This document shows positions 1 through 25,600 of a stretch of 64,000 nt of DNA, in pieces. The notes below the pieces were generated by a model. The model worked only from the letters and a program-made list of their open reading frames with translations. It was not told where the DNA came from and made no database searches. The DNA lies in the NCBI GenBank assembly GCA_964016885.1, contig OZ024741.1, positions 414,532,001 through 414,596,000 on the forward strand. The letters run 5' to 3'. Each line of letters starts with the position of its first letter. Within the stretch, counting starts at the first letter, position 1. The translations under genes and the position numbers were made by a program. Origin of the DNA: Eledone cirrhosa. Lineage: Eukaryota.

Positions 1-3000
1 CCCGTAGCCTAACACTGTACAATGACTGGAGCTGTGCAGCCCGTAGCCTAACACTATACAATGACTGGAGCAGGGCAGCCCATAGCCTAACACTGTACAA
101 TGACTGGAGCTGTGCAGCCCGTAGCCTAACACTGTACAATGACTGCAGCTGTGCAACCCGTAGCCTAACACTGTACAATGACTGCAGCTGTGCAGACCGT
201 AGCCTAACACTGTACAATGACTGGAGTGTGCAGACCGTAGCCTAACACTGTACAATGACTGGAGCTGTGCAGCCCATAGCCTAACACTGTACAATGACTG
301 CAGCTGTGCAGACCGTAGCCTAACACTGTACAATGACTGCAGCTGTGCAGCCCGTAGCATAACACTGTACAATGACTGGAGCAGGGCAGCCCGTAGCCTA
401 ACACTGTACAATGACTGGAGCAGGGCAGCCCGTGGCCTAACACTGTACAATGACTGCAGCTGTGCAGCCCGTAGCCTAACACTGTACAATGACTGCAGCT
501 GTGCAACCCGTAGCCTAACACTGTACAATGACTGCAGCTGTGCAGACCGTAGCCTAACACTGTTCAATGACTGCAGCTGTGCAGACCGTAGCCTAACACT
601 GTACAATGACTGCAGCTGTGCAGCCCGTAGCATAACACTGTACAATGACTGGAGCAGGGCAGCCCGTAGCCTAACACTGTACAATGACTGGAGCAGGGCA
701 GCCCGTGGCCTAACACTGTACAATGACTGCAGCTGTGCAGCCCGTAGCCTAACACTGTACAATGACTGCAGCTGTGCAACCCGTAGCCTAACACTGTACA
801 ATGACTGCAGCTGTGCAGACCGTAGCCTAACACTGTTCAATGACTGGAGCTGTGCAGACCGTAGCCTAACACTGTACAATGACTGCAGCTGTGCAGCCCG
901 TAGCATAACACTGTACAATGACTGCAGCTGTGCAGCCCGTAGCCTAACACTGTACAATGACTGCAGCTGTGCAGCCCGTAGCCTAACACTGTACAATGAC
1001 TGCAGCTGTGCAGCCCGTAGCCTAACACTGTACAATGACTGCAGCTGTGCAGCCCGTAGCCTAACACTGTACAATGACTGGAGCAGGGCAGCCCGTAGCC
1101 TAACACTGTACAATGACTGGAGCAGGGCAGCCCGTAGCCTAACACTGTACAATGACTGCAGCTGTGCAGCCCGTAGCCTAACACTGTACAATGACTGCAG
1201 CTGTGCAACCCGTAGCCTAACACTGTACAATGACTGGAGCTGTGCAGCCCGTAGCCTAACACTGTACAATGACTGCAGCTGTGCAGCCCGTAGCATAACA
1301 CTGTACAGTGACTGGAGCAGGGCAGCCCGTAGCCTAACACTGTACAATGACTAGAGCAGGGCAGCCCGTAGCCTAACACTGTACAATGACTGCAGCTGTG
1401 CAGCCCGTAGCCTAACACTGTACAATGACTGCAGCTGTGCAGCCCGTAGCCTAACACTGTACAATGACTGCAGCTGTGCAGCCCGTAGCCTAACACTGTA
1501 CAATGACTGCAACTGTGCAGCCCGTAGCCTAACACTGTACAATGACTGCAGCTGTGCAGCCCGTAGCATAACACTGTACAATGACTGCAGCTGTGCAGCC
1601 CGTAGCCTAACACTGTACAATGACTGGAGCAGGGCAGCCCGTAGCCTAACACTGTACAATGACTGCAGCTGTGCAGCCCGTAGCATAACACTGTACAATG
1701 ACTGCAGCTGTGCAGCCCGTAGCCTAACACTGTACAATGACTGGAGCAGGGCAGCCCGTAGCCTAACACTGTACAATGACTGCAGCTGTGCAGCGCGTAG
1801 CCTAACACTGTACAATGACTGCAGCTGTGCAGCCCGTAGCCTAACACTGTACAATGACTGCAGCTGTGCAGCCCGTAGCCTAACACTGTACAATGACTGC
1901 AGCTGTGCAGCCCGTAGCCTAACACTGTACAATGACTGGAGCAGGGCAGCCCGTAGCCTAAGACTGTACAATGACTGCAGCTGTGCAGCCCGTAGCCTAA
2001 CACTGTACAATGACTGCAGCTGTGCAGCCCGTAGCCTAACACTGTACAATGACTGCAGCTGTGCAGCCCGTAGCCTAACACTGTACAATGACTGGAGCTG
2101 TGCAGCCCGTAGCATAACACTGTACAATGACTGCAGCTGTGCAGCCCGTAGCCTAACACTGTACAATGACTGGAGCAGGGCAGCCCATAGCCTAACACTG
2201 TACAATGACTGCAGCTGTGCAGCCCGTAGCCTAACACTGTACAATGACTGCAGCTGTGCAGCCCGTAGCATAACACTGTACAATGACTGCAGCTGTGCAG
2301 CCCGTAGCCTAACACTGTACAATGACTGGAGCTGTGCAGCCCGTAGCCTAACACTGTACAATGACTGGAGCTGTGCAGCCCGTAGCCTAACACTGTACAA
2401 TGACTGCAGCTGTGCAGACCGTAGCCTAACACTGTACAATGATGCAGCTGTGCAGCCCGTAGCCTAACACTGTACAATGACTGGAGCAGGGCAGCCCGTA
2501 GCCTAACACTGTACAATGACTGGAGCTGTGCAGCCCGTAGCCTAACACTGTACAATGACTGCAGCTGTGCAGCCCGTAGCCTAACACTGTACAATGACTG
2601 GAGCAGGGCAGCCCGTAGCCTAACAATGTACAATGACTGCAGCTGTGGAGCCCGTAGCCTAACACTGTACAATGACTGCAGCTGTGCAGCCCGTAGCCTA
2701 ACACTGTACAATGACTGGAGCAGGGCAGGCCGTAGCCTAACACTGTACAATGACTGGAGCTGTGCAGCCCGTAGCCTAACACTGTACAATGACTGCAGCT
2801 GTGCAGCCCGTAGCCTAACATTGTACAATGACTGGAGCAGGGCAGGCCGTAGCCTAACACTGTACAATGACTGCAGATGTGCAGCCCGTAGCCTAACACT
2901 GTACAATGACTGGAGCAGGGCAGCCCGTAGCCTAACACTGTACAATGATGCAGCTGTGCAGCCCGTAGCCTAACACTGTACAATGACTGGAGCAGGGCAG

Positions 3001-6000
3001 CCCGTAGCCTAACATTGTACAATGACTGGAGCAGGGCAGGCCGTAGCCTAACACTGTACAATGACTGCAGCTGTGCAGCCCGTAGCCTAACACTGTACAA
3101 TGACTGCAGCTGTGCAGCCCGTAGCCTAACACTGTACAATGACTGCAGCTGTGCAGCCCGTAGCCTAACATTGTACAATGACTGGAGCAGGGCAGCCCGT
3201 AGCCTAACACTGTACAATGACTGGAGCAGGGCAGCCCGTAGCCTAACACTGTACAATGACTGGAGCTGTGCACACCGTAGCCTAACACTGTACAATGACT
3301 GGAGCTGTGCAGCCCGTAGCCTAACACTGTACAATGACTGCAGCTGTGCAGCCCGTAGCCTAACACTGTACAATGACTGGAGCAGGGCAGCCCGTAGCCT
3401 AACACTGTACAATGACTGCAGCTGTGCAGCCCGTAGCCTAACACTGTACAATGACTGCAGCTGTGCAGCCCGTAGCCTAACACTGTACAATGACTGCAGC
3501 TGTGCAGCCCGTAGCCTAACACTGTACAATGACTGGAGCTGTGCAGCCCGTAGCCTAACACTGTACAATGACTGAAGCTGTGCAGCCCGTAGCCTAACAC
3601 TGTACAATGACTGCAGCTGTGCAGCCCGTAGCCTAACACTGTACAATGACTGGAGCTGTGCAGCCCGTAGCCTAACACTGTACAATGACTGCAGCTGTGC
3701 AGCCCGTAGCCTAACTCTGTATAATGACTGCAGCTGTGCAGCCCGTAGCCTAACACTGTACAATGACTGCAGCAGTGCAGACCGTAGCCTAACACTGTAC
3801 AATGACTGGAGCTGTGCAGCCCGTAGCCTAACACTGTACAATGACTGGAGCAGGGCAGCCCGTAGCCTAACACTGTACAATGACTGCAGCTGTGCAGCCC
3901 GTAGCCTAACACTGTACAATGACTGGAGCTGTGCAGCCCGTAGCCTAACACTGTACAATGACTGCAGCTGTGCAGCCCGTAGCCTAACACTGTACAATGA
4001 CTGCAGCTGTGCAGCCCGTAGCCTAACACTGTACAATGACTGGAGCTGTGCAGCCCGTAGCCTAACACTGTACAATGACTGCAGCTGTGCAGCCCGTAGC
4101 CTAACACTGTACAATGACTGCAGCTGTGCAGCCCGTAGCCTAACACTGTACAATGACTGGAGCTGTGCAGCCTGTAGCCTAACACTGTACAATGACTGGA
4201 GCAGGGCAGACCGTAGCCTAACACTGTACAATGACTGGAGCTGTGCAGCCCGTAGCCTAACACTGTACAATGACTGGAGCAGGGCAGACCGTAGCCTAAC
4301 ACTGTACAATGACTGCAGCTGTGCAGCCCGTAGCCTAACACTGTACAATGACTGGAGCAGGGCAGACCGTAGCCTAACACTGTACAATGACTGCAGCTGT
4401 GCAGCCCGTAGCCTAACACTGTACAATGACTGGAGCTGTGCAGACCGTAGCCTAACACTGTACAATGACTGCAGCTGTGCAGCCCGTAGCCTAACACTGT
4501 ACAATGACTGCAGCTGTGCAGCCCGTAGCCTAACACTGTACAATGACTGGAGCTGTGCAGCCCGTAGCCTAACACTGTACAATGACTGGAGCTGTGCAGC
4601 CCGTAGCCTAACACTGTACAATGACTGGAGCTGTGCAGCCCGTAGCCTAACACTGTACAATGACTGGAGCTGTGCAGCCCGTAGACTAACACTGTACAAT
4701 GACTGCAGCTGTGCAGCCCGTAGCCTAACACTGTACAATGACTGGAGCAGGGCAGGCCGTAGCCTAACACTATACAATGACTGGATCTGTGAAGCCCGTA
4801 GCCTAACACTGTACAATGACTGGAGCTGTGCAGCCCGTAGCCTAACACTGTACAATGACTGGAGCTGTGCAGCCTGTAGCCTAACACTGTACAATGACTG
4901 CAGCTGTGCAGCCCGTAGCCTAACACTGTACAATGACTGCAGCTGTGCAGCCCGTAGCCTAACACTGTACAATGACTGGAGCAGGGCAGCCCGTAGCCTA
5001 ACACTGTACAATGACTGGAGCTGTGCAGCCCGTAGCCTAACACTGTACAATGACTGCAGCTGTGCAGCCCGTAGCCTAACACTGTACAATGACTGCAGCT
5101 GTGCAGACCGTAGCCTAACACTGTACAATGACTGCAGCTGTGCAGCCCGTAGCCTAACACTGTACAATGACTGGAGCTGTGCAGCCCGTAGCCTAACACT
5201 GTACAATGACTGCAGCTGTGCAGCCCGTAGCCTAACACTGTACAATGACTGCAGCTGTGCAGCCCGTAGCCTAACACTGTACAATGACTGGAGCAGGGCA
5301 GCCCGTAGCCTAACACTGTACAATGACTGCAGCTGTGCAGCCCGTAGCCTAACACTGTACAATGACTGGAGCTGTGCAGCCCGTAGCCTAACACTGAACA
5401 ATGACTGCAGCTGTGCAGCCCGTAGCCTAACACTGTACAATGACTGGAGCAGGGCAGCCCGTAGCCTAACACTGTACAATGACTGCAGCTGTGCAGCCCG
5501 TAGCCTAACACTGTACAATGACTGGAGCAGGGCAGGCCGTAGCCTAACACTGTACAATGACTGGAGCTGTGCAGCCCGTAGCCTAACACTGTACAATGAC
5601 TGCAGCTGTGCAGCCCGTAGCCTAACACTGTACAATGACTGGAGCAGGGCAGGCCGTAGCCTAACACTGTACAATGACTGCAGCTGTGCAGCCCGTAGCC
5701 TAACACTGTACTATGACTGGAGCAGGGCAGCCCGTAGCCTAACACTGTACAATGACTGCAGCTGTGCAGCCCGTAGCCTAACACTGTACAATGACTGGAG
5801 ATGTACAGCCCGTAGCCTAACACTGTACAATGACTGCAGCTGTGCAGCCCGTAGCCTAACACTGTACAATGACTGCAGCTGTGCAGCCCGTAGCCTAACA
5901 CTGTACAATGACTGCAGCTGTGCAGCCCGTAGCCTAACACTGTACAATGACTGGAGCAGGGCAGGCCGTAGCCTAACACTGTACAATGACTGGAGCTGTG

Positions 6001-9000
6001 CAGCCCGTAGCCTAACACTGTACAATGACTGCAGCAGTGCAGACCGTAGCCTAACACTGTACAATGACTGCAGCTGTGCAGCCCGTAGCCTAACACTGTA
6101 CAATGACTGGAGCTGTACAGCCCGTAGCCTAACACTGTACAATGACTGCAGCTGTGCAGCCCGTAGCCTAACACTGTACAATGACTGCAGCTGTGCAGCC
6201 CGTAGCCTAATACTGTACAATGACTGCAGCTGTGCAGCCCGTAGCCTAACACTGTACAATAACTGCAGCTGTGCAGCCCGTAGCCTAACACTGTACAATG
6301 ACTGGAGCAGGGCAGGCCGTAGCCTAACACTGTACAATGACTGGAGCTGTGCAGCCCGTAGCCTAACACTGTACAATGACTGCAGCTGTGCAGCCCGTAG
6401 CCTAACACTGTACAATGACTGGAGCAGGGCAGGCCGTAGCCTAACACTGTACAATGACTGCAGCTGTGCAGCCCGTAGCCTAACACTGTACAATGACTGG
6501 AGCAGGGCAGCCCGTAGCCTAACACTGTACAATGACTGGAGCAGGGCAGCCCGTAGCCTAACACTGTACAATGACTGCAGCTGTGCAGCCCGTAGCCTAA
6601 CACTGTACAATGACTGCAGCTGTGCAGCCCGTAGCCTAACACTGTACAATGACTGGAGCTGTGCAGCCCGTAGCCTAACACTGTACAATGACTGGAGCAG
6701 GGCAGCCCATAGCCTAACACTGTACAATGACTGGAGCTGTGCAGCCCGTAGCCTAACACTGTACAATGACTGCAGCTGTGCAACCCGTAGCCTAACACTG
6801 TACAATGACTGCAGCTGTGCAGACCGTAGCCTAACACTGTACAATGACTGGAGTGTGCAGACCGTAGCCTAACACTGTACAATGACTGGAGCTGTGCAGC
6901 CCATAGCCTAACACTGTACAATGACTGGAGCTGTGCAGCCCGTAGCATAACACTGTACAATGACTGCAGCTGTGCAGCCCGTAGCCTAACACTGTACAAT
7001 GACTGCAGCTGTGCAGCCCGTAGCATAACACTGTACAATGACTGCAGCTGTGCAGCCCGTAGCCTAACACTGTACAATGACTGGAGCTGTGCAGACCGTA
7101 GCCTAACACTGTACAATGACTGCAGCTGTGCAGCCCATAGCCTAACACTGTACAATGACTGCAGCTGTGCAGCCCGTAGCATAACACTGTACAATGACTG
7201 GAGCAGGGCAGCCCGTAGCCTAACACTGTACAATGACTGGAGCAGGGCAGCCCGTGGCCTAACACTGTACAATGACTGCAGCTGTGCAGCCCGTAGCCTA
7301 ACACTGTACAATGACTGCAGCTGTGCAACCCGTAGCCTAACACTGTACAATGACTGCAGCTGTGCAGACCGTAGCCTAACACTGTTCAATGACTGGAGCT
7401 GTGCAGACCGTAGCCTAACACTGTACAATGACTGCAGCTGTGCAGCCCGTAGCATAACACTGTACAATGACTGCAGCTGTGCAGCCCGTAGCCTAACACT
7501 GTACAATGACTGCAGCTGTGCAGCCCGTAGCCTAACACTGTACAATGACTGCAGCTGTGCAGCCCGTAGCCTAACACTGTACAATGACTGCAGCTGTGCA
7601 GCCCGTAGCCTAACACTGTACAATGACTGGAGCAGGGCAGCCCGTAGCCTAACACTGTACAATGACTGGAGCAGGGCAGCCCGTAGCCTAACACTGTACA
7701 ATGACTGCAGCTGTGCAGCCCGTAGCCTAACACTGTACAATGACTGCAGCTGTGCAACCCGTAGCCTAACACTGTACAATGACTGCAGCTGTGCAGCCCG
7801 TAGCCTAACACTGTACAATGACTGCAGCTGTGCAGCCCGTAGCATAACACTGTACAGTGACTGGAGCAGGGCAGCCCGTAGCCTAACACTGTACAATGAC
7901 TGGAGTAGGGCAGCCCGTAGCCTAACACTGTACAATGACTGCAGCTGTGCAGCCCGTAGCCTAACACTGTACAATGACTGCAGCTGTGCAGCCCGTAGCC
8001 TAACACTGTACAATGACTGCAGCTGTGCAGCCCGTAGCCTAACACTGTACAATGACTGCAACTGTGCAGCCCGTAGCCTAACACTGTACAATGACTGCAG
8101 CTGTGCAGCCCGTAGCATAACACTGTACAATGACTGCAGCTGTGCAGCCCGTAGCCTAACACTGTACAATGACTGGAGCAGGGCAGCCCGTAGCCTAACA
8201 CTGTACAATGACTGCAGCTGTGCAGCCCGTAGCCTAACACTGTACAATGACTGCAGCTGTGCAGCCCGTAGCATAACACTGTACAATGACTGCAGCTGTG
8301 CAGCCCGTAGCCTAACACTGTACAATGACTGGAGCAGGGCAGCCCGTAGCCTAACACTGTACAATGACTGCAGCTGTGCAGCGCGTAGCCTAACACTGTA
8401 CAATGACTGCAGCTGTGCAGCCCGTAGCCTAACACTGTACAATGACTGCAGCTGTGCAGCCCGTAGCCTAACACTGTACAATGACTGCAGCTGTGCAGCC
8501 CGTAGCCTAACACTGTACAATGACTGGAGCAGGGCAGCCCGTAGCCTAAGACTGTACAATGACTGCAGCTGTGCAGCCCGTAGCCTAACACTGTACAATG
8601 ACTGCAGCTGTGCAGCCCGTAGCCTAACACTGTACAATGACTGCAGCTGTGCAGCCCGTAGCCTAACACTGTACAATGACTGGAGCAGGGCAGCCCGTAG
8701 CCTAACACTGTACAATGACTGCAGCTGTGCAGCCCGTAGCCTAACACTGTACAATGACTGGAGCTGTGCAGCCCGTAGCCTAACACTGTACAATGACTGG
8801 AGCAGGGCAGACCGTAGCCTAACACTGTACAATGACTGGAGCTGTGCAGCCCGTAGCCTAACACTGTACAATGACTGGAGCAGTGCAGCCCGTAGCATAA
8901 CACTGTACAATGACTGCAGCTGTGCAGCCCGTAGCCTAACACTGTACAATGACTGGAGCAGGGCAGCCCGTAGCCTAACACTGTACAATGACTGCAGCTG

Positions 9001-12000
9001 TGCAGCCCGTAGCCTAACACTGTACAATGACTGCAGCTGTGCAGCCCGTAGCATAACACTGTACAATGACTGCAGCTGTGCAGCCCGTAGCCTAACACTG
9101 TACAATGACTGGAGCAGGGCAGCCCGTAGCCTAACACTGTACAATGACTGGAGCTGTGCAGCCCGTAGCCTAACACTGTACAATGACTGGAGCAGGGCAG
9201 ACCGTAGCCTAACACTGTACAATGACTGGAGCTGTGCAGCCCGTAGCCTAACACTGTACAATGACTGGAGCAGTGCAGACCGTAGCCTAACACTGTACAA
9301 TGACTGCAGCTGTGCAGACCGTAGCCTAACACTGTACAATGACTGCAGCTGTGCAGCCCGTAGCCTAACACTGTACAATGACTGCAGCTGTGCAGCCCGT
9401 AGCCTAACACTGTACAATGACTGGAGCTGTGCAGCCCGTAGCCTAACACTGTACAATGACTGCAGCTGTGCAGCCCGTAGCCTAACACTGTACAATGACT
9501 GCAGCAGTGCAGACCGTAGCCTAACACTGTACAATGACTGGAGCTGTGCAGCCCGTAGCCTAACACTGTACACTGACTGGAGCAGGGCAGCCCGTAGCCT
9601 AACACTGTACAATGACTGCAGCTGTGCAGCCCGTAGCCTAACACTGTACAATGACTGGAGCTGTGCAGCCCGTAGCCTAACACTGTACAATGACTGGAGT
9701 TGTGCAGCCCGTAGCCTAACACTGTACAATGACTGGAGCAGGGCAGACCGTAGCCTAACACTGTACAATGACTGGAGCTGTGCAGCCCGTAGCCTAACAC
9801 TGTACAATGACTGCAGCTGTGCAGCCCGTAGCCTAACACTGTACAATGACTGCAGCTGTGCAGCCCGTAGCCTAACACTGTACAATGACTGCAGCTGTGC
9901 AGCCCGTAGCCTAACACTGTACAATGACTGCAGCTGTGCAGCCCGTAGCCTAACACTGTACAATGACTGGAGCTGTGCAGCCCGTAGCCTAACACTGTAC
10001 AATGACTGCAGCTGTGCAGCCCGTAGCCTAACACTGTACAATGACTGCAGCTGTGCAGCCTGTAGCCTAACACTGTACAATGACTGCAGCTGTGCAGCCC
10101 GTAGCCTAACACTGTACAATGACTGCAGCTGTGCAGCCTGTAGCCTAACACTGTACAATGACTGCAGCTGTGCAGCCCGTAGCCTAACACTGTACAATGA
10201 CTGGAGCTGTGCAGCCCGTAGCCTAACACTGTACAATGACTGCAGCTGTGCAGCCCGTAGCCTAACACTGTACAATGACTGGAGCAGGGCAGCCCGTAGC
10301 CTAACACTGTACAATGACTGGAGCTGTGCAGCCCGTAGCCTAACACTGTACAATGACTGGAGCTGTACAGCCCGTAGCCTAACACTGTACAATGACTGGA
10401 GCTGTGCAGACCGTAGCCTAACACTGTACAATGACTGGAGCTGTGCAGCCCGTAGCCTAACACTGTACAATGACTGCAGCTGTGCAGCCCGTAGCCTAAC
10501 ACTGTACAATGACTGCAGCTGTGCAGCCCGTAGCCTAACACTGTACAATGACTGGAGCTGTGCAGCCTGTAGCCTAACACTGTACAATGACTGGAGCTGT
10601 GCAGCCCGTAGCCTAACACTGTACAATGACTGGAGCTGTGCAGCCCGTAGCCTAACACTGTACAATGACTGCAGCTGTGCAGCTCGTAGCCTAACACTGT
10701 ACAATGACTGCAGCTGTGCAGCCCGTAGCCTAACACTGTACAATGACTGCAGCTGTGCAGCCTGTAGCCTAACACTGTACAATGACTGGAGCTGTGCAGC
10801 CCGTAGCCTAACACTGTACAATGACTGGAGCTGTGTAGCCCGTAGCCTAACACTGTACAATGACTGCAGCTGTGCAGCCTGTAGCCTAACACTGTACAAT
10901 GACTGCAGCTGTGCAGACCGTAGCCTAACACTGTACAATGACTGCAGCTGTGCAGCCCGTAGCCTAACACTGTACAATGACTGCAGCTGTGCAGCCCGTA
11001 GCCTAACACTGTACAATGACTACAACTGTGCAGCCCGTACCCTAACACTGTACAATGACTACAACTGTGCAGCCCGTAGCCTAACACTGTACAATGACTG
11101 CAGCTGTGCAGCCCGTAGCCTAACACTGTACAATGACTGCAGCTGTGCAGCCCGTAGCCTAACACTGTACAATGACTGCAGATGTGCAGCCTGTAGCCTA
11201 ACACTGTACAATGACTGCAGCTGTGCAGCCCGTAGCCTAACACTGTACAATGACTGGAGCTGTGCAGCCCGTAGCCTAACACTGTACAATGACTGCAGCT
11301 GTGCAGCCTGTAGCCTAACACTGTACAATGACTGCAGCTGTGCAGCCTGTAGCCTAACACTGTACAATGACTGCAGCTGTGCAGCCCGTAGCCTAACACT
11401 GTACAATGACTGGAGCTGTACAGCCCGTAGCCTAACACTGTACAATGACTGCAGCTGTGCAGCCCGTAGCCTAACACTGTACAATGACTGCAGCTGTGCA
11501 GCCCGTAGCCTAACACTGTACAATGACTGGAGCTGTGCAGCCCGTAGCCTAACACTGTACAATGACTACAACTGTGCAGCCCGTAGCCTAACTCTGTAGA
11601 ATGACTGCAGCTGTGCAGCCCGTAGCCTAACACTGTACAATGACTGGAGCAGGGCAGCCCGTAGCCTAACACTGTACAATGACTGCAGCTGTGCAGCCCG
11701 TAGCCTAACACTGTACAATGACTGCAGCTGTGCAGCCCGTAGCCTAACACTGTACAATGACTGCAGCTGTGCAGCCCGTAGCCTAACACTGTACAATGAC
11801 TGGAGCAGGGCAGCCCGTAGCCTAACACTGTACAATGACTGCAGCTGTGCAGCCCGTAGCCTAACACTGTACAATGACTGCAGCTGTGCAGCTCGTAGCC
11901 TAACACTGTACAATGACTGGAGCTGTGCAGCCTGTAGCCTAACACCGTACAATGACTGGAGCAGGGCAGACCGTAGCCTAACACTGTACAATGACTGCAG

Positions 12001-14097
12001 CTGTGCAGCCCGTAGCCTAACACTGTACAATGACTGGAGCTGTGCAGCCCGTAGCCTAACACTGTACAATGACTGCAACTGTGCAGCCCGTAGCCTAACA
12101 CTGTACAATGACTGCAGCTGTGCAGCCCGTAGCCTAACACTGTACAATGACTGGAGCAGGGCAGCCCGTAGCCTAACACTGTACAATGACTGCAGCTGTG
12201 CAGCCCGTAGCCTAACACTGTACAATGACTGGAGCTGTGCAGCCCGTAGCCTAACACTGTACAATGACTGGAGCAGGGCAGCCCGTAGCCTAACACTGTA
12301 CAATGACTGGAGCAGGGCAGCCCGTAGCCTAACACTGTACAATGACTGCAGCTGTGCAGCCCGTAGCCTAACACTGTACAATGACTGGAGCAGGGCAGCC
12401 CGTAGCCTAACACTGTACAATGACTGGAGCAGGGCAGCCCGTAGCCTAACACTGTACAATGACTGCAGCTGTGCAGCCCGTAGCCTAACACTGTACAATG
12501 ACTGGAGCTGTGCAGCCCGTAGCCTAACACTGTACAATGACTGCAGCTGTGCAGACCGTAGCCTAACACTGTACAATGACTGGAGCAGGGCAGCCCGTAG
12601 CCTAACACTGTACAATGACTGGAGCTGTGCAGCCCGTAGCCTAACACTGTACAATGACTGCAGCTGTGCAGCCCGTAGCCTAACACTGTACAATGACTGC
12701 AGCTGTGCAGCCCGTAGCCTAACACTGTACAATGACTGGAGCTGTGCAGCCCGTAGCCTAACACTGTACAATGACTGCAGCTGTGCAGCCCGTAGCCTAA
12801 CACTGTACAATGACTGGAGCTGTGCAGCCCGTAGCCTAACACTGTACAATGACTGCAGCTGTGCAGACCGTAGCCTAACACTGTACAATGACTGGAGCAG
12901 GGCAGCCCGTAGCCTAACACTGTACAATGACTGGAGCAGGGCAGCCCGTAGCCTAACACTGTACAATGACTGCAGCTGTGCAGCCCGTAGCCTAACACTG
13001 TACAATGACTGGAGCAGGGCAGCCCGTAGCCTAACACTGTACAATGACTGCAGCTGTGCAGCCCGTAGCCTAACACTGTACAATGACTGGAGCAGGGCAG
13101 CCCGTAGCCTAACACTGTACAATGACTGGAGCAGGGCAGCCCGTAGCCTAACACTGTACAATGACTGCAGCTGTGCAGCCTGTAGCTTAACAGTCTACAA
13201 TGACTGGAGCTGTGCAGCCCATAGCCTAACAGTCTACAATGACTGGAGATGTGCAGCCCGTAGCCTAACCGTCTACAATGACTTGAGCTGTGCAGCCCAT
13301 AGCCTAACACTGTACAATGACTGGAGCTGTGCAGCCCATAGCCTAACAGTCTACAATGACTGCAGCTGTGCAGCCCGTAGCCTAACACTATACAATGACT
13401 GGAGCTGTGCAGCCCGTAGCCTAACAGTCTACAATGACTGCAGCTGTGCAGCCCATAGCCTAACAGTCTACAATGACTGCAGCTGTGCAGCTCATAGCCT
13501 AACAGTCTACAATGACTTGAGCTGTGCAGCCCGTAGCCTAACAGTCTACAATGACTGCAGCTGTGCAGCCCGTAGCCTAACACTATACAATGACTGGAGC
13601 TGTGCAGCCCGTAGCCTAACAGTCTACAATGACTGGAGCTGTGCAGCCCATAGCCTAACAGTCTACAATGACTGGAGCTGTGCAGCCCGTAGCCTAACAC
13701 TGTACAATGACTGGAGCTGTGCAGCCCGTAGCCTAACAGTCTACAATGACTGGAGCTGTGCAGCCCATAGCCTAACAGTCTACAATGACTGCAGCTGTGC
13801 AGCTCATAGCCTAACAGTCTACAATGACTTGAGCTGTGCAGCCCGTAGCCTAACAGTCTACAATGACTGCAGCTGTGCAGCCCGTAGCCTAACACTATAC
13901 AATGACTGGAGCTGTGCAGCCCGTAGCCTAACAGTCTACAATGACTGGAGCTGTGCAGCCCATAGCCTAACAGTCTACAATGACTGGAGCTGTGCAGCCC
14001 GTAGCCTAACACTGTACAATGACTGGAGCTGTGCAGCCCGTAGCCTAACAGTCTACAATGACTGGAACTGTGCAGCACATAGCATAACAGTCCACAA
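1..14097. repeat. 39-bp tandem satellite, ~360 copies, continues beyond the left edge
   Basis: Consensus CCCGTAGCCTAACACTGTACAATGACTGCAGCTGTGCAG repeated head-to-tail. Common variants are CTGGAGCTGT and CTGGAGCAGGGC. Single-base-deletion monomers occur at ~226, ~2442, ~2948 and ~6853. Confidence 0.99.
13186..14097. repeat. Divergent terminal subdomain of the 39-bp satellite (CAGTCTAC variant)
   Basis: From ~13190 most monomers read AACAGTCTACAATG instead of AACACTGTACAATG. An 8-monomer (312-bp) block is duplicated (GCTCATAG at ~13490 and ~13802). Confidence 0.95.
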
Positions 14098-14315
14098 CAG
14101 AATATATGATGGCTGAAAACATCCTCAGCCTTATTAGATCACTGCTGGATCAAGGAAACTGGTTAGCATAGAGCTTCTCTCATTTTTACCAGGATCTATA
14201 TTGGTAAACCCCAATATAACTATACATATAGAAATATAATCGGTGTGGGATGCTTAAAGCGTCCGTAAGCAGTATGCCGTTAGAGCACTCAATGCTCTAA
14301 CAGAGTATAATATCA

Positions 14316-14370
14316 CATCATCATCATCATCGTTTAACGTCCATCTTCCACGCTTGCATGGGTTTGGACG
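14316..14370 (-). mobile_element. SINE-like 3' end fragment with (ATG)n tail, minus strand
   Basis: CATCATCATCATCATCGTTTAACGTCCATCTTCCACGCTTGCATGGGTTTGGACG is a diverged reverse complement of 14501-14550. It resembles an abundant octopus interspersed repeat from memory; not verified. Confidence 0.6.
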
Positions 14371-14375
14371 GTCAC

Positions 14376-14421
<46 letters not shown>

Positions 14422-14459
14422 CCACACACACAATCAGGCCATTATATATATATATATAT
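14376..14459. repeat. Two (TA)n microsatellites
   Basis: TA runs at ~14376-14418 and ~14443-14459. Confidence 0.95.
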
Positions 14460-14559
14460 TGGTGTTAGGAAGGGCATCTAGCCTCAAGTGGGATAACTCT
14501 CGTCTAACCCATGCTAGCATGGAAGATAGACGTTAAATGATGATGATAATGATGATGAT
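14460..14559 (+). mobile_element. SINE-like fragment: TGTTAGGAAGGGCATC core, 3' end and (ATG)n tail
   Basis: GGTGTTAGGAAGGGCATCTAGCC resembles the conserved central motif of MetaSINE-type elements as recalled. It is followed by CCCATGCTAGCATGGAAGATAGACGTTAAA and (TGA)n. Confidence 0.6.
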
Positions 14560-14596
14560 ATAGATAGATAGGGGGAGAGAGAGAGAGAGAGAGAGA
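14557..14596. repeat. (GATA)n and (GA)n microsatellites
   Basis: TAGATAGATAG followed by a GA run. Confidence 0.9.
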
Positions 14597-14749
14597 AATA
14601 CTTCTATAAACAGACATAAATGAAATCTACCACATCATAGAAAGGAATACATTTTAAAGTTAATCTCTACATCTCTCTCACACTCCCCCATTCTCTCACA
14701 CTCCCCCTCACTCTTTCACTCACTCACGTTTTCTCTCTTTATCTCTTCA

Positions 14750-15180
14750 CCAACCCAATATGGTCTGATATGACCCAACCTAATATGGTCTGATATGACC
14801 CAGCCCAATATGGTCTGATATGACCCAACCCAATATGGTCTGATATGACCCAGGCAAATATGGTCTGATATGACCCAGGCCAATATGGTCTGATATGACC
14901 CAGGCCAATATGGTCTGATATGACCCAGCCCAATATGGTCTGATATGACCCAGCCCAATATGGTCTGATTATGACCCAGCACAATATGGTCTATGACCCA
15001 ACCCAATATTGTTCAATCTGACCCAGGCCAATATGGTCTGATATGACCCAACCCAATATGGTCTGATATGAGCCAGCGCAATATGGTTTGATATGACCCA
15101 ACCCAATATGGTCTGATATGACCCAACCCAATATGGTTCAATCTGACCCAGGCCAATATGTCTGATATGACCCAACCCAT
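14750..15180. repeat. 25-bp minisatellite, ~17 copies, built from five pentamers
   Basis: Unit ACCCA-ATATG-GTCTG-ATATG-ACCCA, with variants GCCCA/GGCCA. Confidence 0.95.
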
Positions 15181-15890
15181 TTCGATCCAATCCAGACCAT
15201 TTTGTTCCAGTCTGATCCAATATGGCCCAATCTGGTTCGGAACAATCCAATCCAGTCTGGTCTAATCAGGTTAGATCCAATCTGGTTTTATCTGATCCAG
15301 TTTTATCTGACTTGGTTTGATCTAATCTGGTCCAATCTGATCCAATCTGGTCTGATCCAATCTAGTTTGATAATATTTGGTTTAATCCAATCCAGTCTGA
15401 TCTGATTCAGTTTGATCTGATCTGGTTTGATCTGATCCAGTTTGTTCCAATCCGGTCTTATCCAGTCAGGTCTGATCTGATTCAGTTTGATCCAATTCAA
15501 TTTGGTCCAATCCAGACTGACTTTGTCAATTTTGATCTGATCCCATCTAATCCAATTCTGTTTGATCTGATCCAGTTTGATCTGATCCGGTTTGATCCAA
15601 TTCGGTCTGATCTGTTTTGATAATAATCAGTCTGATCCAATCCCTTTTTATCCAGTTCAGTTTGATCCGAATCGTTTTGATCCAATCCAGTTTAATTTGA
15701 TCCAATCTGATCCAATTCAGTTTGAACCAATCTGGTCTGATCTGATCCAGTTTGATCCAATCTGGTTTATCCAATCCAGTTTGTTCCAATTCAGTCTGAT
15801 CTTGTCAAGTTTGATCCAATCCGGTTTAGTTTAATCTGATCCAATCCAGTTTGATCTGATCTGATCCAGTTTAGCCCCATCCAATCAGAT
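15181..15890. repeat. Degenerate pentanucleotide repeat (ATCCA/ATCTG/GTTTG/GTCTG/ATTCA)
   Basis: A 5-bp period is maintained over ~700 bp with shuffled pentamer variants. Confidence 0.93.
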
Positions 15891-15967
15891 CAGAATTGAA
15901 CAGGATCATGCCATTATAAATACATGAAGTACAAATCAACAAGTCAGAATTCACTTCAGTCATTCAT

Positions 15968-16083
15968 AATTGCTGCCAGATTCAGGTGACAACCACCATA
16001 CAACAGCTATGACCTCATCAGACAATTGCTGTCAGATAGATTCAGATGACAACCACCATACAACAGCTACGACCTCATCAGAC
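15968..16083. repeat. Two-copy tandem duplication (56 and 60 bp)
   Basis: AATTGCTG(C/T)CAGA[TAGA]TTCAG(G/A)TGACAACCACCATACAACAGCTA(T/C)GACCTCATCAGAC occurs twice. Confidence 0.92.
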
Positions 16084-16352
16084 AGAAGTTGAACAGAAAA
16101 AACAGTAAAAACATGAAGACACAAAAATTATTCCTGTTGCTTCGACACATTGATGCACCCTGGGCCGATACCCAGTGTTGCCTTCCCAAAGCACCGGTGA
16201 CTCAGAATAAACAGCCCCACAGCATCAGCAATAGGAATACAGTAGGCCACTATCTACCAGTGAGAGGCTGCCTCACCACAACATCATCAAGCCATTGTGA
16301 ATTCCCTAGTGGTGCCATGGTTTGAGATTCTCCCTCCACTTGCTCAGGGATG

Positions 16353-16355
<3 letters not shown>

Positions 16356-16399
<44 letters not shown>
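16356..16399. repeat. (TA)n microsatellite
   Basis: Pure TA run directly preceding the 45-bp array. Confidence 0.97.
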
Positions 16400-16401
<2 letters not shown>

Positions 16402-16402
16402 G

Positions 16403-18480
16403 TGTGGACTGGGTGTTTTTGTTCTGGCACCAGCATCACCACCTTACAGAGTGGACTGGGTGTTTTTGTTGTGACCAGCATTACCACCTTACAGAGTGGA
16501 CTGGGTGTTTTTGTTGTGTGACCAGCATCACCACCTTACAGAGTGGACTGGGTGTTTTTGTTCTGGCACCAGCATTACCACCTTACAGAGTGGACTGGGT
16601 GTTTTTGTTGTGACCAGCATTACCACCTTACAGAGTGGACTGGGTGTTTTTGTTCTGGCACCAGCATTACCACCTTACAGAGTGGACTGGGTGTTTTTGT
16701 TGTGTGACCAGCATCACCACCTTACAGAGTGGACTGGGTGTTTTTGTTGTGACCAGCATTACCACCTTACAGAGTGGACTGGGTGTTTTTGTTGTGACCA
16801 GCATTACCACCTTACAGAGTGGACTGGGTGTTTTTGTTGTGTGACCAGCATCACCACCTTACAGAGTGGACTGGGTGTTTTTGTTGTGACCAGCATTACC
16901 ACCTTACAGAGTGTACTGGGTGTTTTTCTTGTGTCACCAGCATTACCACCTTACAGAGTGTACTGGGTGTTTTTGTTTGTGTCACCAGCATTACCACCTT
17001 ACAGAGTGAACTGGGTGTTTTTGTTGTGGCACCAGCATTACCACCTTACAGAGTGTACTGGGTGTTTTTGTTTGTGTCACCAGCATTACCACCTTACAGA
17101 GTGTACTGGGTGTTTTTGTTGTGACCAGCATTACCACCTTAGAGTGGACTGGGTGTTTTTGTTGTGACCAGCATTACCACCTTACAGAGTGGACTGGGTG
17201 TTTTTGTTGTGTGACCAGCATCACCACCTTACAGAGTGGACTGGGTGTTTTTGTTGTGACCAGCATTACCATCTTACAGAGTGGACTGGGTGTTTTTGTT
17301 GTGACCAGCATTACCACCTTACAGAGTGGACTGGGTGTTTTTGTTCTGGCACCAGCATTACCACCTTACAGAGTGTACTGGGTGTTTTTGTTGTGTGACC
17401 AGCATCACCACCTTACAGAGTGGACTGGGTGTTTTTGTTGTGACCAGCATTACCACCTTACAGAGTGTACTGGGTGTTTTTGTTGTGACCAGCATTACCA
17501 CCTTACAGAGTGTACTGGGTGCTTTTGTTGTGACCAGCATTACCACCTTACAGAGTGGACTGGGTGTTTTTGTTGTGACCAGCATTACCACCTTACAGAG
17601 TGTACTGGGTGTTTTTCTTGTGTCACCAGCATTACCACCTTACAGAGTGTACTGGGTGTTTTTGTTTGTGTCACCAGCATTACCACCTTACAGAGTGGAC
17701 TGGGTGTTTTTGTTGTGACCAGCATTACCACCTTACAGAGTGGACTGGGTGTTTTTGTTGTGACCAGCATTACCACCTTACAGAGTGGACTGGGTGTTTT
17801 TGTTGTGACCAGCATTACCACCTTACAGAGTGTACTGGGTGTTTTTGTTTGTGTCACCAGCATTACCACCTTACAGAGTGGACTGGGTGTTTTTGTTGGG
17901 ACCAGCATTACCACCTTACAGAGTGGACTGGGTGTTTTTGTTGTGTGACCTGCATTACCACCTTACAGAGTGGACTGGGTGTTTTTGTTGTGACCAGCAT
18001 TACCACCTTACAGAGTGGACTGGGTGTTTTTGTTGGGACCAGCATTACCACCTTACAGAGTGGACTGGGTGTTTTTGTTGTGTGACCTGCATTACCACCT
18101 TACAGAGTGGACTGGGTGTTTTTCTTGTGTCACCAGCATTACCACCTTACAGAGTGGACTGGGTGTTTTTGTTGTGACACCAGCATTACCACCTTACAGA
18201 GTGGACTGGGTGTTTTTCTTGTGTCACCAGCATTACCACCTTACAGAGTGTACTGGGTGTTTTTCTTGTGGCACCAGCACTGCCATCTTACAGAGTGTAC
18301 TGGGTGTTTTTCTTGTGGCACCAGCACTGCCATCTTACAGAGTGTACTGGGTGTTTTTCTTGTGGCACCAGCACTGCCATCTTACAGAGTGTACTGGGTG
18401 TTTTTCTTGTGGCACCAGCACTGCCATCTTACAGTATACTAAGTGTTTTTTGGCATGACACCAACACTACCTCATTACAG
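16403..18480. repeat. 45-48-bp minisatellite, ~44 copies
   Basis: Consensus GTGGACTGGGTGTTTTTGTTGTGACCAGCATTACCACCTTACAGA, with length variants (CTGGCACC, GTGTGACC, TTGTGTCACC). The last copies diverge (GCACTGCCATC) and fade into unique sequence. Confidence 0.98.
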
Positions 18481-18598
18481 CAATAAGGTACTCATTATCC
18501 TTGGTTTTGTTGGGGAGATATGATAGAAATGATGGAAAGGGGAGAAAAGTAGAGATAAGTTAGAAAGATAGATAGCCCCAGTAAGGAAGTAAGATATA

Positions 18599-18828
18599 GA
18601 CTGATATGGTGTGATATAAAATATATAGAGTCAGTAAGACTGATATGGTTTGATATAAAATATATAGAGTCAGTAAGACTGATATGGTGTGATATAAAAT
18701 ATATAGAGTCAGTAAGACTGATATGGTGTGATATAAAATATATAGAGTCAGTAAGACTGATATGGTGTGATATAAAATATATAGAGTCAGTAAGACTGAT
18801 ATGGTGTGATATAAAATATATAGAGTCA
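18599..18828. repeat. AT-rich 39-bp minisatellite, ~6 copies, unrelated to the large 39-bp satellite
   Basis: Unit GACTGATATGGTGTGATATAAAATATATAGAGTCAGTAA. Confidence 0.97.
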
Positions 18829-18862
18829 TGTAAAATAGGAAAGGTAATGTTAAGAGGTTTAC

Positions 18863-18918
18863 CTTGACTACTTCTCTTTTCATACTCATAAAGAACTCCA
18901 GTATTTGAGAATGAAACA
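18863..18918 (-). CDS. Candidate internal coding exon (56 nt) of an unidentified spliced gene; peptide (M)FHSQILEFFMSMKREVVK
   Basis: Minus strand has a T-rich acceptor TATTTTCCTATTTAATATTTTTATTGTAG| and a donor AAG|GTAAAC. The frame with 2 leading nt is open and is phase-compatible with the exon at 22387-22473. Confidence 0.65.
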
Positions 18919-19353
18919 CTACAATAAAAATATTAAATAGGAAAATATTTTAGTAGAAGGTGACAATCAACACAATTATTATTATTGATAATAATTAGAA
19001 AGATGGTGGCCTGCTTGAAGAGGGAGCCATGTAATGTGGGTGGAATGGCTGATGTAGCAGATGTCTCTGGCCATTCTCCGTGGTATCAAGGTGACTATTG
19101 ACACAATTATTATCAACCATATAAAGATTTTTTTTTACATCGGTTTTGTTTAAGGCAATCATTTCCCAAACTATGAGATGAATTTATTTTTTACGGTTAA
19201 TTTTATCAACAAATAGCTTAGAAATATGTTAACAATGACCCCACTACCCTGGGGTGCTTGAAATATTGTAACGTACCCCGCCAGGGTAGATTCACTGAAA
19301 CATTTTTTTTTAATGTGCAAACATATATGTCTGCACATTAAACTATTTGTGTT

Positions 19354-19383
19354 GTTTCAATCCTGCTGAGGTCAACTTTGCCT
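19354..19383 (+). mobile_element. Short tRNA-SINE-like remnant
   Basis: B-box-like GTTTCAATCC followed by TGCTGAGGTCAACTTTGCCT, resembling a recalled cephalopod SINE segment. Only 30 bp long. Confidence 0.35.
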
Positions 19384-19422
19384 CTCTCCTATCAATTCTT
19401 CTTCCTTTCTCTCTCTCATATA

Positions 19423-19829
19423 TATACAGCTATGGTGCAGCCACACTTAGAATTTGCATCACCAGTCTGGAACCTCTATCTTGCTCAGAACATTGACCGC
19501 CTGGAAACTGTTCAAAGACTTGCAACCAAGTGAATACCCTACTCAGAACGCCTTGCTTCTCTGGGCATGGATACATTGAAGCTCCGACGTCTGGCAACTG
19601 ACTTGGTAAACACCCGCAAAATTATTAACCATCTTGCCAACAATAACCCTGGGCACCTTTTTGATTTCCATGTGTCTAACACACGTGGGCATGCCAACAA
19701 AGTCAGAAAACAGCACAGCTCCCATGACTTTCGGAAACATTTTTTCACGTTCAGAGTTGCTGAAGCATGGAACAAACTACCTTCATCAGTTGTTAGCTGT
19801 CGAGAGACTGCATCCTTTAAAACCTCCAT
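19423..19829 (+). pseudogene. Decayed LINE ORF2 (reverse transcriptase protein C-terminal region)
   Basis: In-frame TGA at 19531-19533, an apparent short in-frame deletion between IP and YSERL, and no RT core or endonuclease domain. Confidence 0.88.
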
Positions 19830-21111
19830 GGAACAAACTACCTGCATCAGTTATTAGTTGTCGAGACAGTGCATCCTTTAAAACCTCCATGGAACAAACT
19901 ACCTTCATCAGTTGTTAGCTGTCGAGACACTGCATCCTTTGAAACCTCCATGGAACAAACTACCTTCATCAGTTGTTAGCTGCTGAGACACTGCATCCTT
20001 TAAAACCTCCATGGAACAAACTACTTGCATCAGTTGTTAGCTGTCGAGACACTGCATCCTTTAAAACCTCCATGGAACAAACTACCTTCATCAGATGTTA
20101 GCTGTCGAGACACTGCATCCTTTAAAACCTCCATGGAACAATCTACCTTCATCAGTTGTCAGCTGTCGAGACACTGCATCCTTTAAAACCTCCATGGAAC
20201 AAACTACCTTCATCAGTTGTCAGCTGTCGAGACACTGCATCCTTTAAAACCTCCATGGAACAAACTACCTTCATCAGTTGTTAGCTGTCGAGACACTGCA
20301 TCCTTTAAAACCTCCATGGAACAATCTACCTTCATCAGTTGTCAGCTGTCGAGACACTGCATCCTTTAAAACCTCCATGGAACAAACTACCTTCATCAGT
20401 TGTTAGCTGTCGAGACACTGCATCCTTTAAAACCTCCATGGAACAAACTACTTTCATCAGTTGTCAGCTGTCGAGACACTGCATCCTTTAAAACCTCCAT
20501 GGAACAAACTTCCTGCATCAGTTATTAGCTGTTGAGACACTGCATCCTTTAAAACCTCCATGGAACAAACTACCTACATCAGTTGTTAGTTGTCGAGACA
20601 CTGCATCCTTTAAAACCTCCATGGAACAAACTACCTTCATCAGTTGTTAGCTGTCGAGACACTGCATCCTTTAAAACCTCCATGGAACAAACTACCTGCA
20701 TCAGTTGTTAGCTGGCGAGACACTGCATCCTTTAAAACCTCCATGGAACAAACTACCTGCATCAGTTGTTAGTTGTCGAGACACTGCATCCTTTAAAACC
20801 TCCATGGAACAAACTACCTTCATCAGTTGTTAGCTGTCGAGACACTGCATCCTTTAAAACCTCCATGGAACAAACTACCTGCATCAGTTGTTAGCTGGCG
20901 AGACACTGCATCCTTTAAAACCTCCATGGAACAAACTACCTTCATCAGTTGTTAGCTGTCGAGACACTGCATCCTTTAAAACCTCCATGGAACAAACTAC
21001 CTGCATCAGTTGTTAGCTGTCGAGACACTGCATCCTTTAAAACCTCCATGGAACAAACTACCTTCATCAGTTGTTAGCTGTCGAGACACTGCACCCTTTA
21101 AAACCTCCATG
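19766..21111. repeat. 61-bp minisatellite, 22 copies, derived from LINE ORF2 coding sequence
   Basis: Unit CATGGAACAAACTACCTTCATCAGTTGTTAGCTGTCGAGACACTGCATCCTTTAAAACCTC. CATG recurs every 61 bp from 19766 to 21108. Confidence 0.98.
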
Positions 21112-21464
21112 CTTCCTGAGATTCACCAACACTACACTTAATATTCCCCCTCCATACATACACACACATGTATATCATGACTCATACACTATTCACTTCC
21201 CTGACATTTGTACATTATTCTATGTACTATACATGCCCCTTTGATGAGTTGTAGTGCACCTGAACACTGTACACAATAATTTCATTATTATTATTATTCT
21301 ATTGTTATATATATATCTTTCTTACTTCCCCTCTATCGCCCCCCCCCCCCCCGTCCTCTCTCACTCTCAGTCCTTCTCTGAAAGAAATCTGCTGTGTTCA
21401 GAGAAGATGGACTCAGCCATGTTTAAAAATGCCTAACAAACACGATATTGGCCTACAGTACTCC

Positions 21465-22350
21465 TACAACCCCATCAGGAGTTACAGGCCCATAGATATA
21501 TACATCTAGCCCTAGCTCAGTGGTAACCCTAGCTCAGTGGTACCCCTAGCTCAGTGGTACCCCTACGACCCTATCAGGAGTTACCATAGATACATACCTT
21601 TAGCCCTAGCTCAGTGGTACCCCTAGCTCAGTGGTATTCTTAGCTCAGTGGCATCCCTATCTCAGTGGTAACCCTAGCTCAGTAGTACCCCTAGCTCAGT
21701 GGTACCCCTAGCTCAGTGGTACCCCTAGCTCAGTAGTACCCCTAACTCAGTGGTACCCCTAGCTCAGTGGTAACCCTAGCTCAGTAGTACCCCTAACTCA
21801 GTGGTACCCCTAGCTCAGTGGTACCCCTAGCTCAGTGGTAACAATAGCTCAGTGGTACCCCTACGACTCCATCAGGAGTTACAGGTCCATAGATATATAC
21901 ATCTCGCCCTAGCTCAGTGGTAACCCTAGCTCAGTGGTACCCCTAGCTTAGTGGTACCCCTAGCTTAGTGGTACCCCTAACTCAGTGGTACCCCTAACTC
22001 AGTGGTACCCCTACCACTCCATCAGGAGTTACAGGTTCATAGATATATACATCTAGCCCTAGCAGTGGTACCCCTAGCTCAGTGGTAACGCTAGCTCAGT
22101 GGTAACCCTATGACCCTATCAGGAGTTACCATAGATACATACCTTTAGCCCTAGATCAGTGGTAACCCTAGCTCAGTGGTACACCTAGCTTAGTGGTACC
22201 CCTACTCAGTGGTACCCCTAGCTCAGTGGTACCCTAGCTCAGTGTTACCCCTAGCTTAGTGGTACCCCTACTCAGTGGTACCCCTAGCTTAGTGGTACCC
22301 CTACTCAGTGGTACCCCTACCACTCCATCAGGAATTACAGATCCATAAAT
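21465..22350. repeat. Composite repeat: runs of a 17-bp unit separated by six related ~40-45-bp linkers
   Basis: Unit AGCTCAGTGGTACCCCT. Linkers contain CCATCAGGAGTTACAGG.CCATAGATATATACATCTAG (type A: ~21472, ~21869, ~22019, ~22325) or CCTATCAGGAGTTACCATAGATACATACCTTTAG (type B: ~21570, ~22115). Confidence 0.93.
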
Positions 22351-22386
22351 ATATACAAATATACAGAAAACAAGATATCGACTTAC

Positions 22387-22473
22387 TGCTGGTTTCAGTG
22401 TGTTGGAAGACTATCGTAATAATTGCAGCTGCTGATTCACTTGCATATGTAGGTTCTTCACGACCAAACGTAC
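22387..22473 (-). CDS. Candidate internal coding exon (87 nt, phase 1-1) of an unidentified spliced gene; peptide xTFGREEPTYASESAAAIITIVFQHTETS
   Basis: Minus strand has an acceptor TATACTTGCAG| and a consensus donor |GTAAGT. Only one of three frames is open, and its trailing A joins TG of the next exon to form ATG in frame. The sequence is non-repetitive and lies between repeats. Confidence 0.68.
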
Positions 22474-22485
22474 CTGCAAGTATAC

Positions 22486-22563
22486 ATCATAGTCATCATT
22501 ATCACCATCATCACTATGATGATTATCATCAACATCATTATAATCACCATCACCATCATCATT
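22486..22563. repeat. Degenerate (CAT)n trinucleotide repeat
   Basis: CATCATAGTCATCATTATCACCATCATCAC...; it explains the poly-His in the 22308 ORF. Confidence 0.9.
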
Positions 22564-22653
22564 CAACTCCTGATTTCCCTGCAGCAAAGGTTAAACAGGT
22601 CAGCAACCAACCAGGTCAGTACTTCAGCAGAGCCAATGACCTCAAAGATGGGC

Positions 22654-25600
22654 CGGAGACATACATCACACATACATTGGTCTGACACTCTACCGAGTAT
22701 AAGACACCAGGAGACCTACATCACACATACATTGGTCTGACACTCTACCGAGTATAAGACACCAGGAGACCTACATCACATACATTGGTCTGACACTCTA
22801 CCGAGTATAAGACACCAGGAGACCTACATCACACATACATTGGTCTGACACTCTACCGAGTATAAGACACCTGGAGTCCTACATCACACATATACTTGGT
22901 AGAGTGTCAGACCAAAGTAAGACACCAGGAGACCTACATCACACATACATTGGTCTGATACTCTACCGAGTATAAAACACCAGCAGACCTACAACACACA
23001 TACATTGGTCTGACACTCTACAGAGTATAAGACACCAGGTGACCTACATCACACATACTTTGGTCTTACACTCTACCGAGTATAAGACACCAGGAGACCT
23101 ACATCACACATACTTTGGTCTTACACTCTACCGAGTATAAGACACCAGGAGACCTACATCACACATACTTTGATCTGACACTCTACCAAGTATAAGACAC
23201 CAGGAGACCTACATCACACATACATTGGTCTGATACTCTACCGAGTATAAAACACCAGCAGACCTACAACACACATACATTGGTCTGACACTCTACCGAG
23301 TATAAGACACCAGGAGACCTACATCACACATACTTTCATCTGACACTCTACAGAGTATAAGACACCAGGAGAGCTACATCACACGTACTTTGGTCTGACA
23401 CTCTACCGAGTATAAGACACCAAGAGACCTACATCACACGTACTTTGGTCTGACACTCTACCGAGTATAAGACACCGGGAGACGTACATCACACGTATTT
23501 TGCTCTGACACTCTACCGAGTATAAGACACCAGGTGACGTACATCACACGTACTTTGGTCTGACACTCTACCGAGTATAAGACACCAGGAGACCTACATC
23601 ACACATACTTTGATCTGACACTCTACCGAGTATAAGACACCATGAGACCTACATCACACGTACTTTGGTCTGACACTCTACCGAGTATAAGACACCAAGA
23701 GACCTACATCAAACGTACTTTGGTCTGACACTCTACCGAATATAAGACACCAGGAGACCTACATCACACATACTTTGGTCTTACACTCTACCGAGTATAA
23801 GACACCAGGAGACCTACATCACACGTACTTTGGTCTGACACTCTACCGAGTATAAGACACCAGGAGACCTACATCGCACATACATAGGTCTGACACTCTA
23901 CCGAGTATAAGACACCAGAAGACCTACATCACACATACATAGGTCTGACACTCTACCGAGTATAAGACACCAGGAGACCTACATCACACGTACTGTGGTC
24001 TCACACTCTACTAGTATAAGACACCAGGAGACCTACATCACACGTACTTTGGTCTGACACTCTACCGAGTATAAGACACCAGGAGACCTACATCACGCGT
24101 ACTTTGGTCTGACACTCTACCGAGTATAAGAATACCAGGAGACCTACATCACACGTACTTTGGTCTGACACTCTACCCAGTATAAGACACCAGGAGACCT
24201 ACATCACACATACTTTGGTCTGACACTCTACCGAGTATAAGACACCAGGAGACCTACATCACGCATACTTTGGTCTGACACTCTACCGCGTATAAGACAC
24301 CAGGAGACCTACATCACACGTACTTTGGTCTGACACTCTACCAAGTATAAGACACCAGGAGACCTACATCACACATACTTTGGTCTGACACTCTACCGAG
24401 TATAACACAGCAGGAGACCTACATCACACATACTTTGGTCTCACACTCTACCGAGTATAACACACGAGGAGACCTACATCGCACATACTTTGGTCTGACA
24501 CTCTACCAAGTATAACACACCAGGAGACCTACATCACACATACTTTGGTCTGACACTCTACCGAGTATAACACACCAGGAGCCCTACAGCACACATACTT
24601 TGGTCTCACACTCTACCGAGTATAACACACCAGGAGACCTACATCGCACATACTTTGGTCTGACACTCTACCGATTATAAGACACCAGGAGACCTACATA
24701 AACACATACATAGGTTTAACACACTACTGAGTATAAGACACCAGGAGACCTACATCACACATACATAGGTCTGACACTCTACCGAGTATAAGACACCAGG
24801 AGACCTACATCACACATACATAGGTCAGACACTCTACCGAGTATAAGACACCAGGAGACCTACATCACACGTACTTTGGTCTCACACTCTACCGAGTATA
24901 AGACACCAGGAGACCTACATCACACATACTTTGGTCTGACACTCTACCGACTATAAGACACTAGGAGACCTATATCACACGTACTTTGGTCTGACACTCT
25001 ACCGAGTATAAGACACCAGGAGACCTACAGCACACATACTTTGATCTGACACTCTACCGAGTATAAGACACCAGGAGACCTACATCACACGTACTTTGGT
25101 CTGACACTCTACCGAGTATAACACACCAGGAGACCTACATCACACATACATAGATCTGACACTCTACCGCGTATAAGACACCAGGAGACCTACATCACAC
25201 GTACTTTGGTCTGACACTCTACCGAGTATAACACACCAGGAGACCTACATCACACATACATAGATCTGACACTCTACCGCGTATAAGACACCAGGAGACC
25301 TACATCACACGTAATTTGGTCCGACACTCTACCCAGTATAAGACACCGGGAGACCTACATCACACGTACTTTGGTCTGACACTCTACCCAGTATAAGACA
25401 CCGGGAGACCTACATCACACGTACTTTGGTCTGACACTCTACCGAGTATAAGACACCAGTAGTCCTACATCACACGTACTTTGGTCTGACACTCTACCGA
25501 GTATAAGACGCCAGGAGACCTACATCACACATACATAGGTTTAACACTCTACCGAGTATAAGACACCAGGAGACCTACATCACACATACGTAGGTTTAAC

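Follow-up and report, generated by a model that had tools for sequence, protein, structure and literature searches.

Two segments in a tandem-repeat-rich region of the Eledone cirrhosa genome are very probably exons 5 and 6 of unc-79

Introduction

Minisatellites that derive from transposons or lie in subtelomeric regions form a general class, and typical VNTRs are far shorter than 50–270 kb. Gigantism of introns filled with satellite DNA is described for the Drosophila Y-loop genes kl-3 and kl-5 in PMC6508621 and PMC11207136. The locus analyzed in this study, unc-79 of the octopus Eledone cirrhosa, shows likeness to each. With transposon-derived and subtelomeric minisatellites it shares a 61-bp unit from the tail of a LINE, as well as arrays concentrated in the final 16 Mb of the contig. 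With the Y-loop genes it shares a span that is more than 99% intron and introns that are mostly tandem repeat (84%). However, Y-loop genes have megabase introns, while the largest intron found in unc-79 is 271 kb. Y-loop introns contain simple satellites, whereas those of unc-79 contain minisatellite units of 23–61 bp, a different one in most introns. Unlike kl-3 and kl-5, unc-79 is neuronal and conserved, and lies close to the end of a chromosome. Additionally, the satellite introns of Y-loop genes are transcribed with dedicated RNA-binding factors; transcription through the arrays of unc-79 is hypothetical.

The gene itself is already known and is a routine ortholog, conserved and annotated. 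A literature search of titles and the beginnings of abstracts, with few subscription journals among them, returned neither giant intronic minisatellites in cephalopods nor octopus unc-79, which is a weak negative result. The terms "satellite" and "tandem repeat" are absent from the main texts of PMC9068888 and PMC13652810.

Results

Coordinates, splice signals and reading frame of the exon pair

The window analyzed is a stretch of 64,000 bp at positions 414,532,001–414,596,000 of a contig 416.3 Mb long; the genome measures 3.0 Gb. An earlier note on this DNA had proposed that two short minus-strand segments belong, as internal exons, to a real spliced gene, whose protein it did not recognize. 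The features concerned are listed below in window coordinates; exon numbering includes a short ATG exon at contig 414,834,656.

22474–64000, minus strand: 3' end of the intron upstream of exon 5 (271,359 bp whole, running to contig 414,825,832)
22387–22473, minus strand: unc-79 coding exon 5 (87 nt, phase 1-1, about UNC-79 residues 159–188)
18919–22386, minus strand: GT-AG intron between exons 5 and 6 (3468 bp, 62% tandem repeat)
18863–18918, minus strand: unc-79 coding exon 6 (56 nt, phase 1-0, UNC-79 residues 188–206)
1–18862, minus strand: 5' part of the intron downstream of exon 6 (56,532 bp whole, next exon at contig 414,494,330)

We recomputed the flanks of both exons, TTGCAG/GTAAGT (22473–22387) and TTGTAG/GTAAAC (18918–18863), and found the positions and the lengths of 87 and 56 nt as claimed. 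The 3468-bp intron separating the exons likewise agreed on recalculation. Translation showed that the first exon has a single open frame and that the frame of the joined exons stays open. The frame and phase that create a methionine at the junction were also as described, and this methionine is present in UNC-79 of both O. vulgaris and O. bimaculoides.

An acceptor, donor and open-frame filter applied to positions 14090–22654 yielded 17 candidates on the minus strand and 171 on the plus strand. Exon 5 fails the pyrimidine cut-off of that filter, having a weak pyrimidine tract at its acceptor, which follows the 271-kb intron. The splice signals by themselves are thus no better than chance in the window. 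Because splice-like signals are so common here, support for the exon pair has to come from homology, and it is homology that decides. A candidate terminal exon near window position 14,190 was dropped, the true next exon being at contig 414,494,330.

Both segments match consecutive stretches of UNC-79

A 40-residue query over exon 5 was matched by all 12 candidates, nine of which carry PF14776 and five of which are named unc-79. Exon 6 was placed by local tblastn on the UNC-79 residues directly after those of exon 5. The reference proteins, both gene models, were CAI9733136.1 of O. vulgaris and XP_052828982.1 of O. bimaculoides. When joined, the 47 residues align to O. vulgaris UNC-79 (residues 160–206) without gaps and with 44 identities, the junction methionine included, and to O. 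bimaculoides UNC-79 with 45 of 47 identical, again without gaps. Exon 6 on its own is identical to O. vulgaris residues 189–206 at all 18 positions. The same 47 residues match a 2354-aa ORF that runs without interruption along a contig of 7.6 kb (39/47 identical, no gaps) and is likely the transcript of a relative. In three genomic ORFs of other animals the similarity is confined to exon 5, which suggests that the intron positions are old. The 29-aa and 20-aa exon peptides, searched singly, gave no match in Pfam, PDB or Atlas, being too short.

The O. vulgaris protein scores 682.7 bits on PF14776 (residues 66–583), so that exon 5 falls inside the Pfam UNC-79 domain, and it matches the solved UNC79 chains 7w7g, 7wji and 7sx3. 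An isoform model of O. vulgaris unc-79 begins at residue 156, just ahead of exon 5.

Chance splice-like signals, or a decayed fragment of a duplicate, could in principle produce such a pair, and signals of this kind are indeed common in the window. However, the gap-free identity of 94–96% to octopus UNC-79 and the correct position within a single collinear locus refute this reading, to which we assign practically no probability. The homolog search called for earlier therefore identifies the protein as UNC-79, and the proposal of internal exons holds, with both peptides matching consecutive stretches of that protein. We conclude that the two segments are very probably exons 5 and 6 of unc-79 and likely to be spliced into its mRNA, splicing in E. 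cirrhosa being inferred.

A collinear gene model for the 5' half of unc-79

Whole-genome searches found one collinear unc-79 locus, on the minus strand, and a gene model was built from 864 kb of contiguous sequence. The spliced model comprises 24 exons, all with AG/GT boundaries and matching phases, and encodes 1142 aa with no stop or frameshift. Exon boundaries were selected from the available AG/GT sites so as to agree with the homolog, and the position of the last donor could be off by a few bases. An extra short ATG exon lies 3.9 kb farther upstream, at contig 414,834,656. Compared with O. vulgaris, 1120 of 1140 residues are identical (98%); the next closest protein reaches 88%, and eight other animals 45–69%, which places the animal among the octopuses. 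The Eledone and O. vulgaris proteins agree at this level over residues 9–1148 and have the same residues across the exon 5–6 junction. They differ in extent: the O. vulgaris UNC-79 model is full-length, whereas the searches recovered the 5' half only from the Eledone assembly.

The first half of the protein is spread over about 639 kb. The 24 exons account for 3430 bp of 635,091 bp, which is 99.5% intron, and the 23 introns sum to 631,661 bp, 84% of it tandem repeat. In the spliced model exon 5 is symmetric, so in-frame skipping is possible, whereas skipping exon 6, or exons 5 and 6 together, creates a stop. Contigs from three runs of one sample cross an exon unspliced and are no evidence either way.

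Tandem-repeat arrays fill the introns around the exon pair

Most of the window is tandem repeat. Its arrays, apart from one described in the next section, are as follows.

22655–64000, no strand assigned: 55-bp minisatellite (part of an array of 270,424 bp with about 4918 units and no N)
21510–22319, no strand assigned: 17-bp degenerate tandem array
16404–18434, no strand assigned: 47-bp tandem array (related units dispersed on the contig, 74–80% identity)
1–14089, no strand assigned: 39-bp minisatellite (part of an array of 51,274 bp)

The 55-bp array makes up 99.7% of the intron upstream of exon 5 and stops 181 bp short of the exon-5 acceptor. Its units are about 94% identical at all lags; across the arrays, units are about 94–96% alike whatever their spacing. 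Among 3120 full-length units there are 334 variants, and 74,450 of 269,924 500-mers have an exact earlier copy, with multi-kb exact duplications inside the array. The uniform likeness of the units and the multi-kb duplications fit unequal exchange. All 125 matches of the 55-mer fall in its own array, among the 40 of 257 candidates scored, and the 55-, 39- and 43-mers have no match elsewhere in the sequence compared. Other introns of unc-79 hold arrays of 96.6 kb (43-mer), 29.2 kb (42-mer) and 14.5 kb (23-mer).

These lengths come from a single assembly, and the exact multi-kb duplications leave room for mis-sizing. The exons could then be real while assembly error has inflated the 270-kb intron and the true array is much shorter. 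We consider this unlikely: the array contains no N, its 334 variants among 3120 full-length units make up a mosaic that can be traced with long reads, and many more arrays of over 10 kb with different units lie close by.

The idea that the arrays were filtered against poly(A) and splice signals on the sense strand is unsupported, since most of 12 arrays have such signals on neither strand. Poly(A) motifs occurred on the sense strand only in one of the 12 and on the antisense strand only in two, and donor motifs on the sense strand only in four. A recursive-splice motif was absent from all four of the large arrays examined.

The 39-mer array (window 1–14138) contains stop-free frames of more than 2000 codons on both strands because 39 is divisible by three; it is intronic and shows no sign of coding. 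Dispersed units of 47–50 bp similar to the 16404–18434 array were also observed, perhaps another transposon tail.

A LINE-derived unit in the exon 5–6 intron

Two features of the exon 5–6 intron are related to a LINE.

19423–19830, plus strand: LINE 3' fragment, antisense to unc-79 (85–95% identical to three dispersed copies)
19766–21111, plus strand: 61-bp array (22 units, read as tandem amplification of the last LINE ORF2 codons)

One of the three dispersed copies sits behind endonuclease and RVT_1 frames. The copies match up to window position 19823–19830, so each contains a single 61-bp unit. By sequence comparison, the 61-mer of this intron evidently arose from the 3' end of LINE ORF2. 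The unit recurs at contig 414,265,592–414,268,095, and a 10-kb sample taken at 411.0 Mb consists wholly of it.

Searches for the 3' half of unc-79

Residues 1149–2383 gave no match over the 214 kb downstream (contig 414,195,690 to 413,982,001), nor genome-wide with five queries, two of which used a stricter first look and one of which scored 150 of 2879 candidates. Comparable queries did detect 5' exons genome-wide. A 200-N gap, adjoining a 1.8-kb AT run, is located at contig 414,072,381, which is 123 kb beyond the last exon found, and the intron after that exon exceeds 123 kb. Within this distance lies a 49-kb array of a 49-bp unit (contig 414,115,884–414,165,355).

The locus might be a truncated or split unc-79, its 5' half apart from or without a 3' half. 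Consistent with this, the five queries miss the 3' half while comparable ones find 5' exons, and in the O. bimaculoides RefSeq model homology likewise ends at the last exon found here, at residue 1149. However, 24 exons with 98% identity and no stop or frameshift fit poorly with real truncation, and the gap sits 123 kb downstream of the last exon. Additionally, the O. vulgaris model is complete at 2383 aa, and the O. bimaculoides 3' part is present as separate fragments 93–98% identical to the O. vulgaris protein. We regard truncation or splitting as very improbable. The 3' half is likely lost at the gap or in unassembled sequence, and the simplest reading is a very long intron that is hard to assemble.

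Past the gap, contig 413,982,001–414,072,000 is dense in LINE-like long ORFs of up to about 1000 aa, and further LINE-like long ORFs occur at 414,167,000–414,186,000. The 49-bp unit also occurs in a large array at 412.0 Mb, 2.1 Mb away, reflecting either a shared family or a scaffolding artefact.

Array load belongs to the chromosome end

Samples of 10 kb were wholly array in 9 of 10 cases distal to unc-79, in 3 of 10 at 400–413.5 Mb, and in 1 of 20 mid-arm. The array load belongs to the chromosome end and not to unc-79 specifically. Between 414.9 and 416.1 Mb giant arrays follow one another, with units of 59, 44, 58 and 21 bp; four samples across 300 kb consist of the 21-mer, and the contig terminus is an AT microsatellite.

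Discussion

In the explanation that we propose, the ordinary GT-AG spliceosome would splice exons 5 and 6 into unc-79 mRNA. By orthology, the product would be a scaffold subunit of the NALCN sodium-leak channel complex. As described in PMC8986805, a HEAT/armadillo super-helix of UNC79–UNC80 docks on NALCN and supports its current. The introns may have grown within a subtelomeric domain through tandem amplification of local sequence and of transposon tails, and their enlargement is probably tolerated rather than functional. The 3' half of the gene would sit in unassembled sequence.

A broader proposal, which we offer as speculative and rather doubtful, is that octopus chromosome ends contain conserved neuronal genes with single-unit minisatellite introns of 50–270 kb, partly seeded by LINE tails. 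Under this proposal unc-79 would be transcribed through its arrays in a Y-loop-like manner, and array length would determine when, or how much of, a subunit controlling resting potential is made.

The architecture is of modest importance, in that unc-79, a neuronal gene with strong conservation, seems to tolerate an intron of 270 kb that is nearly pure minisatellite. Introns of this kind could account for the break that octopus unc-79 models from two assemblies show at one and the same exon. They also make unc-79 a test case for the splicing of satellite introns outside the Drosophila Y genes.
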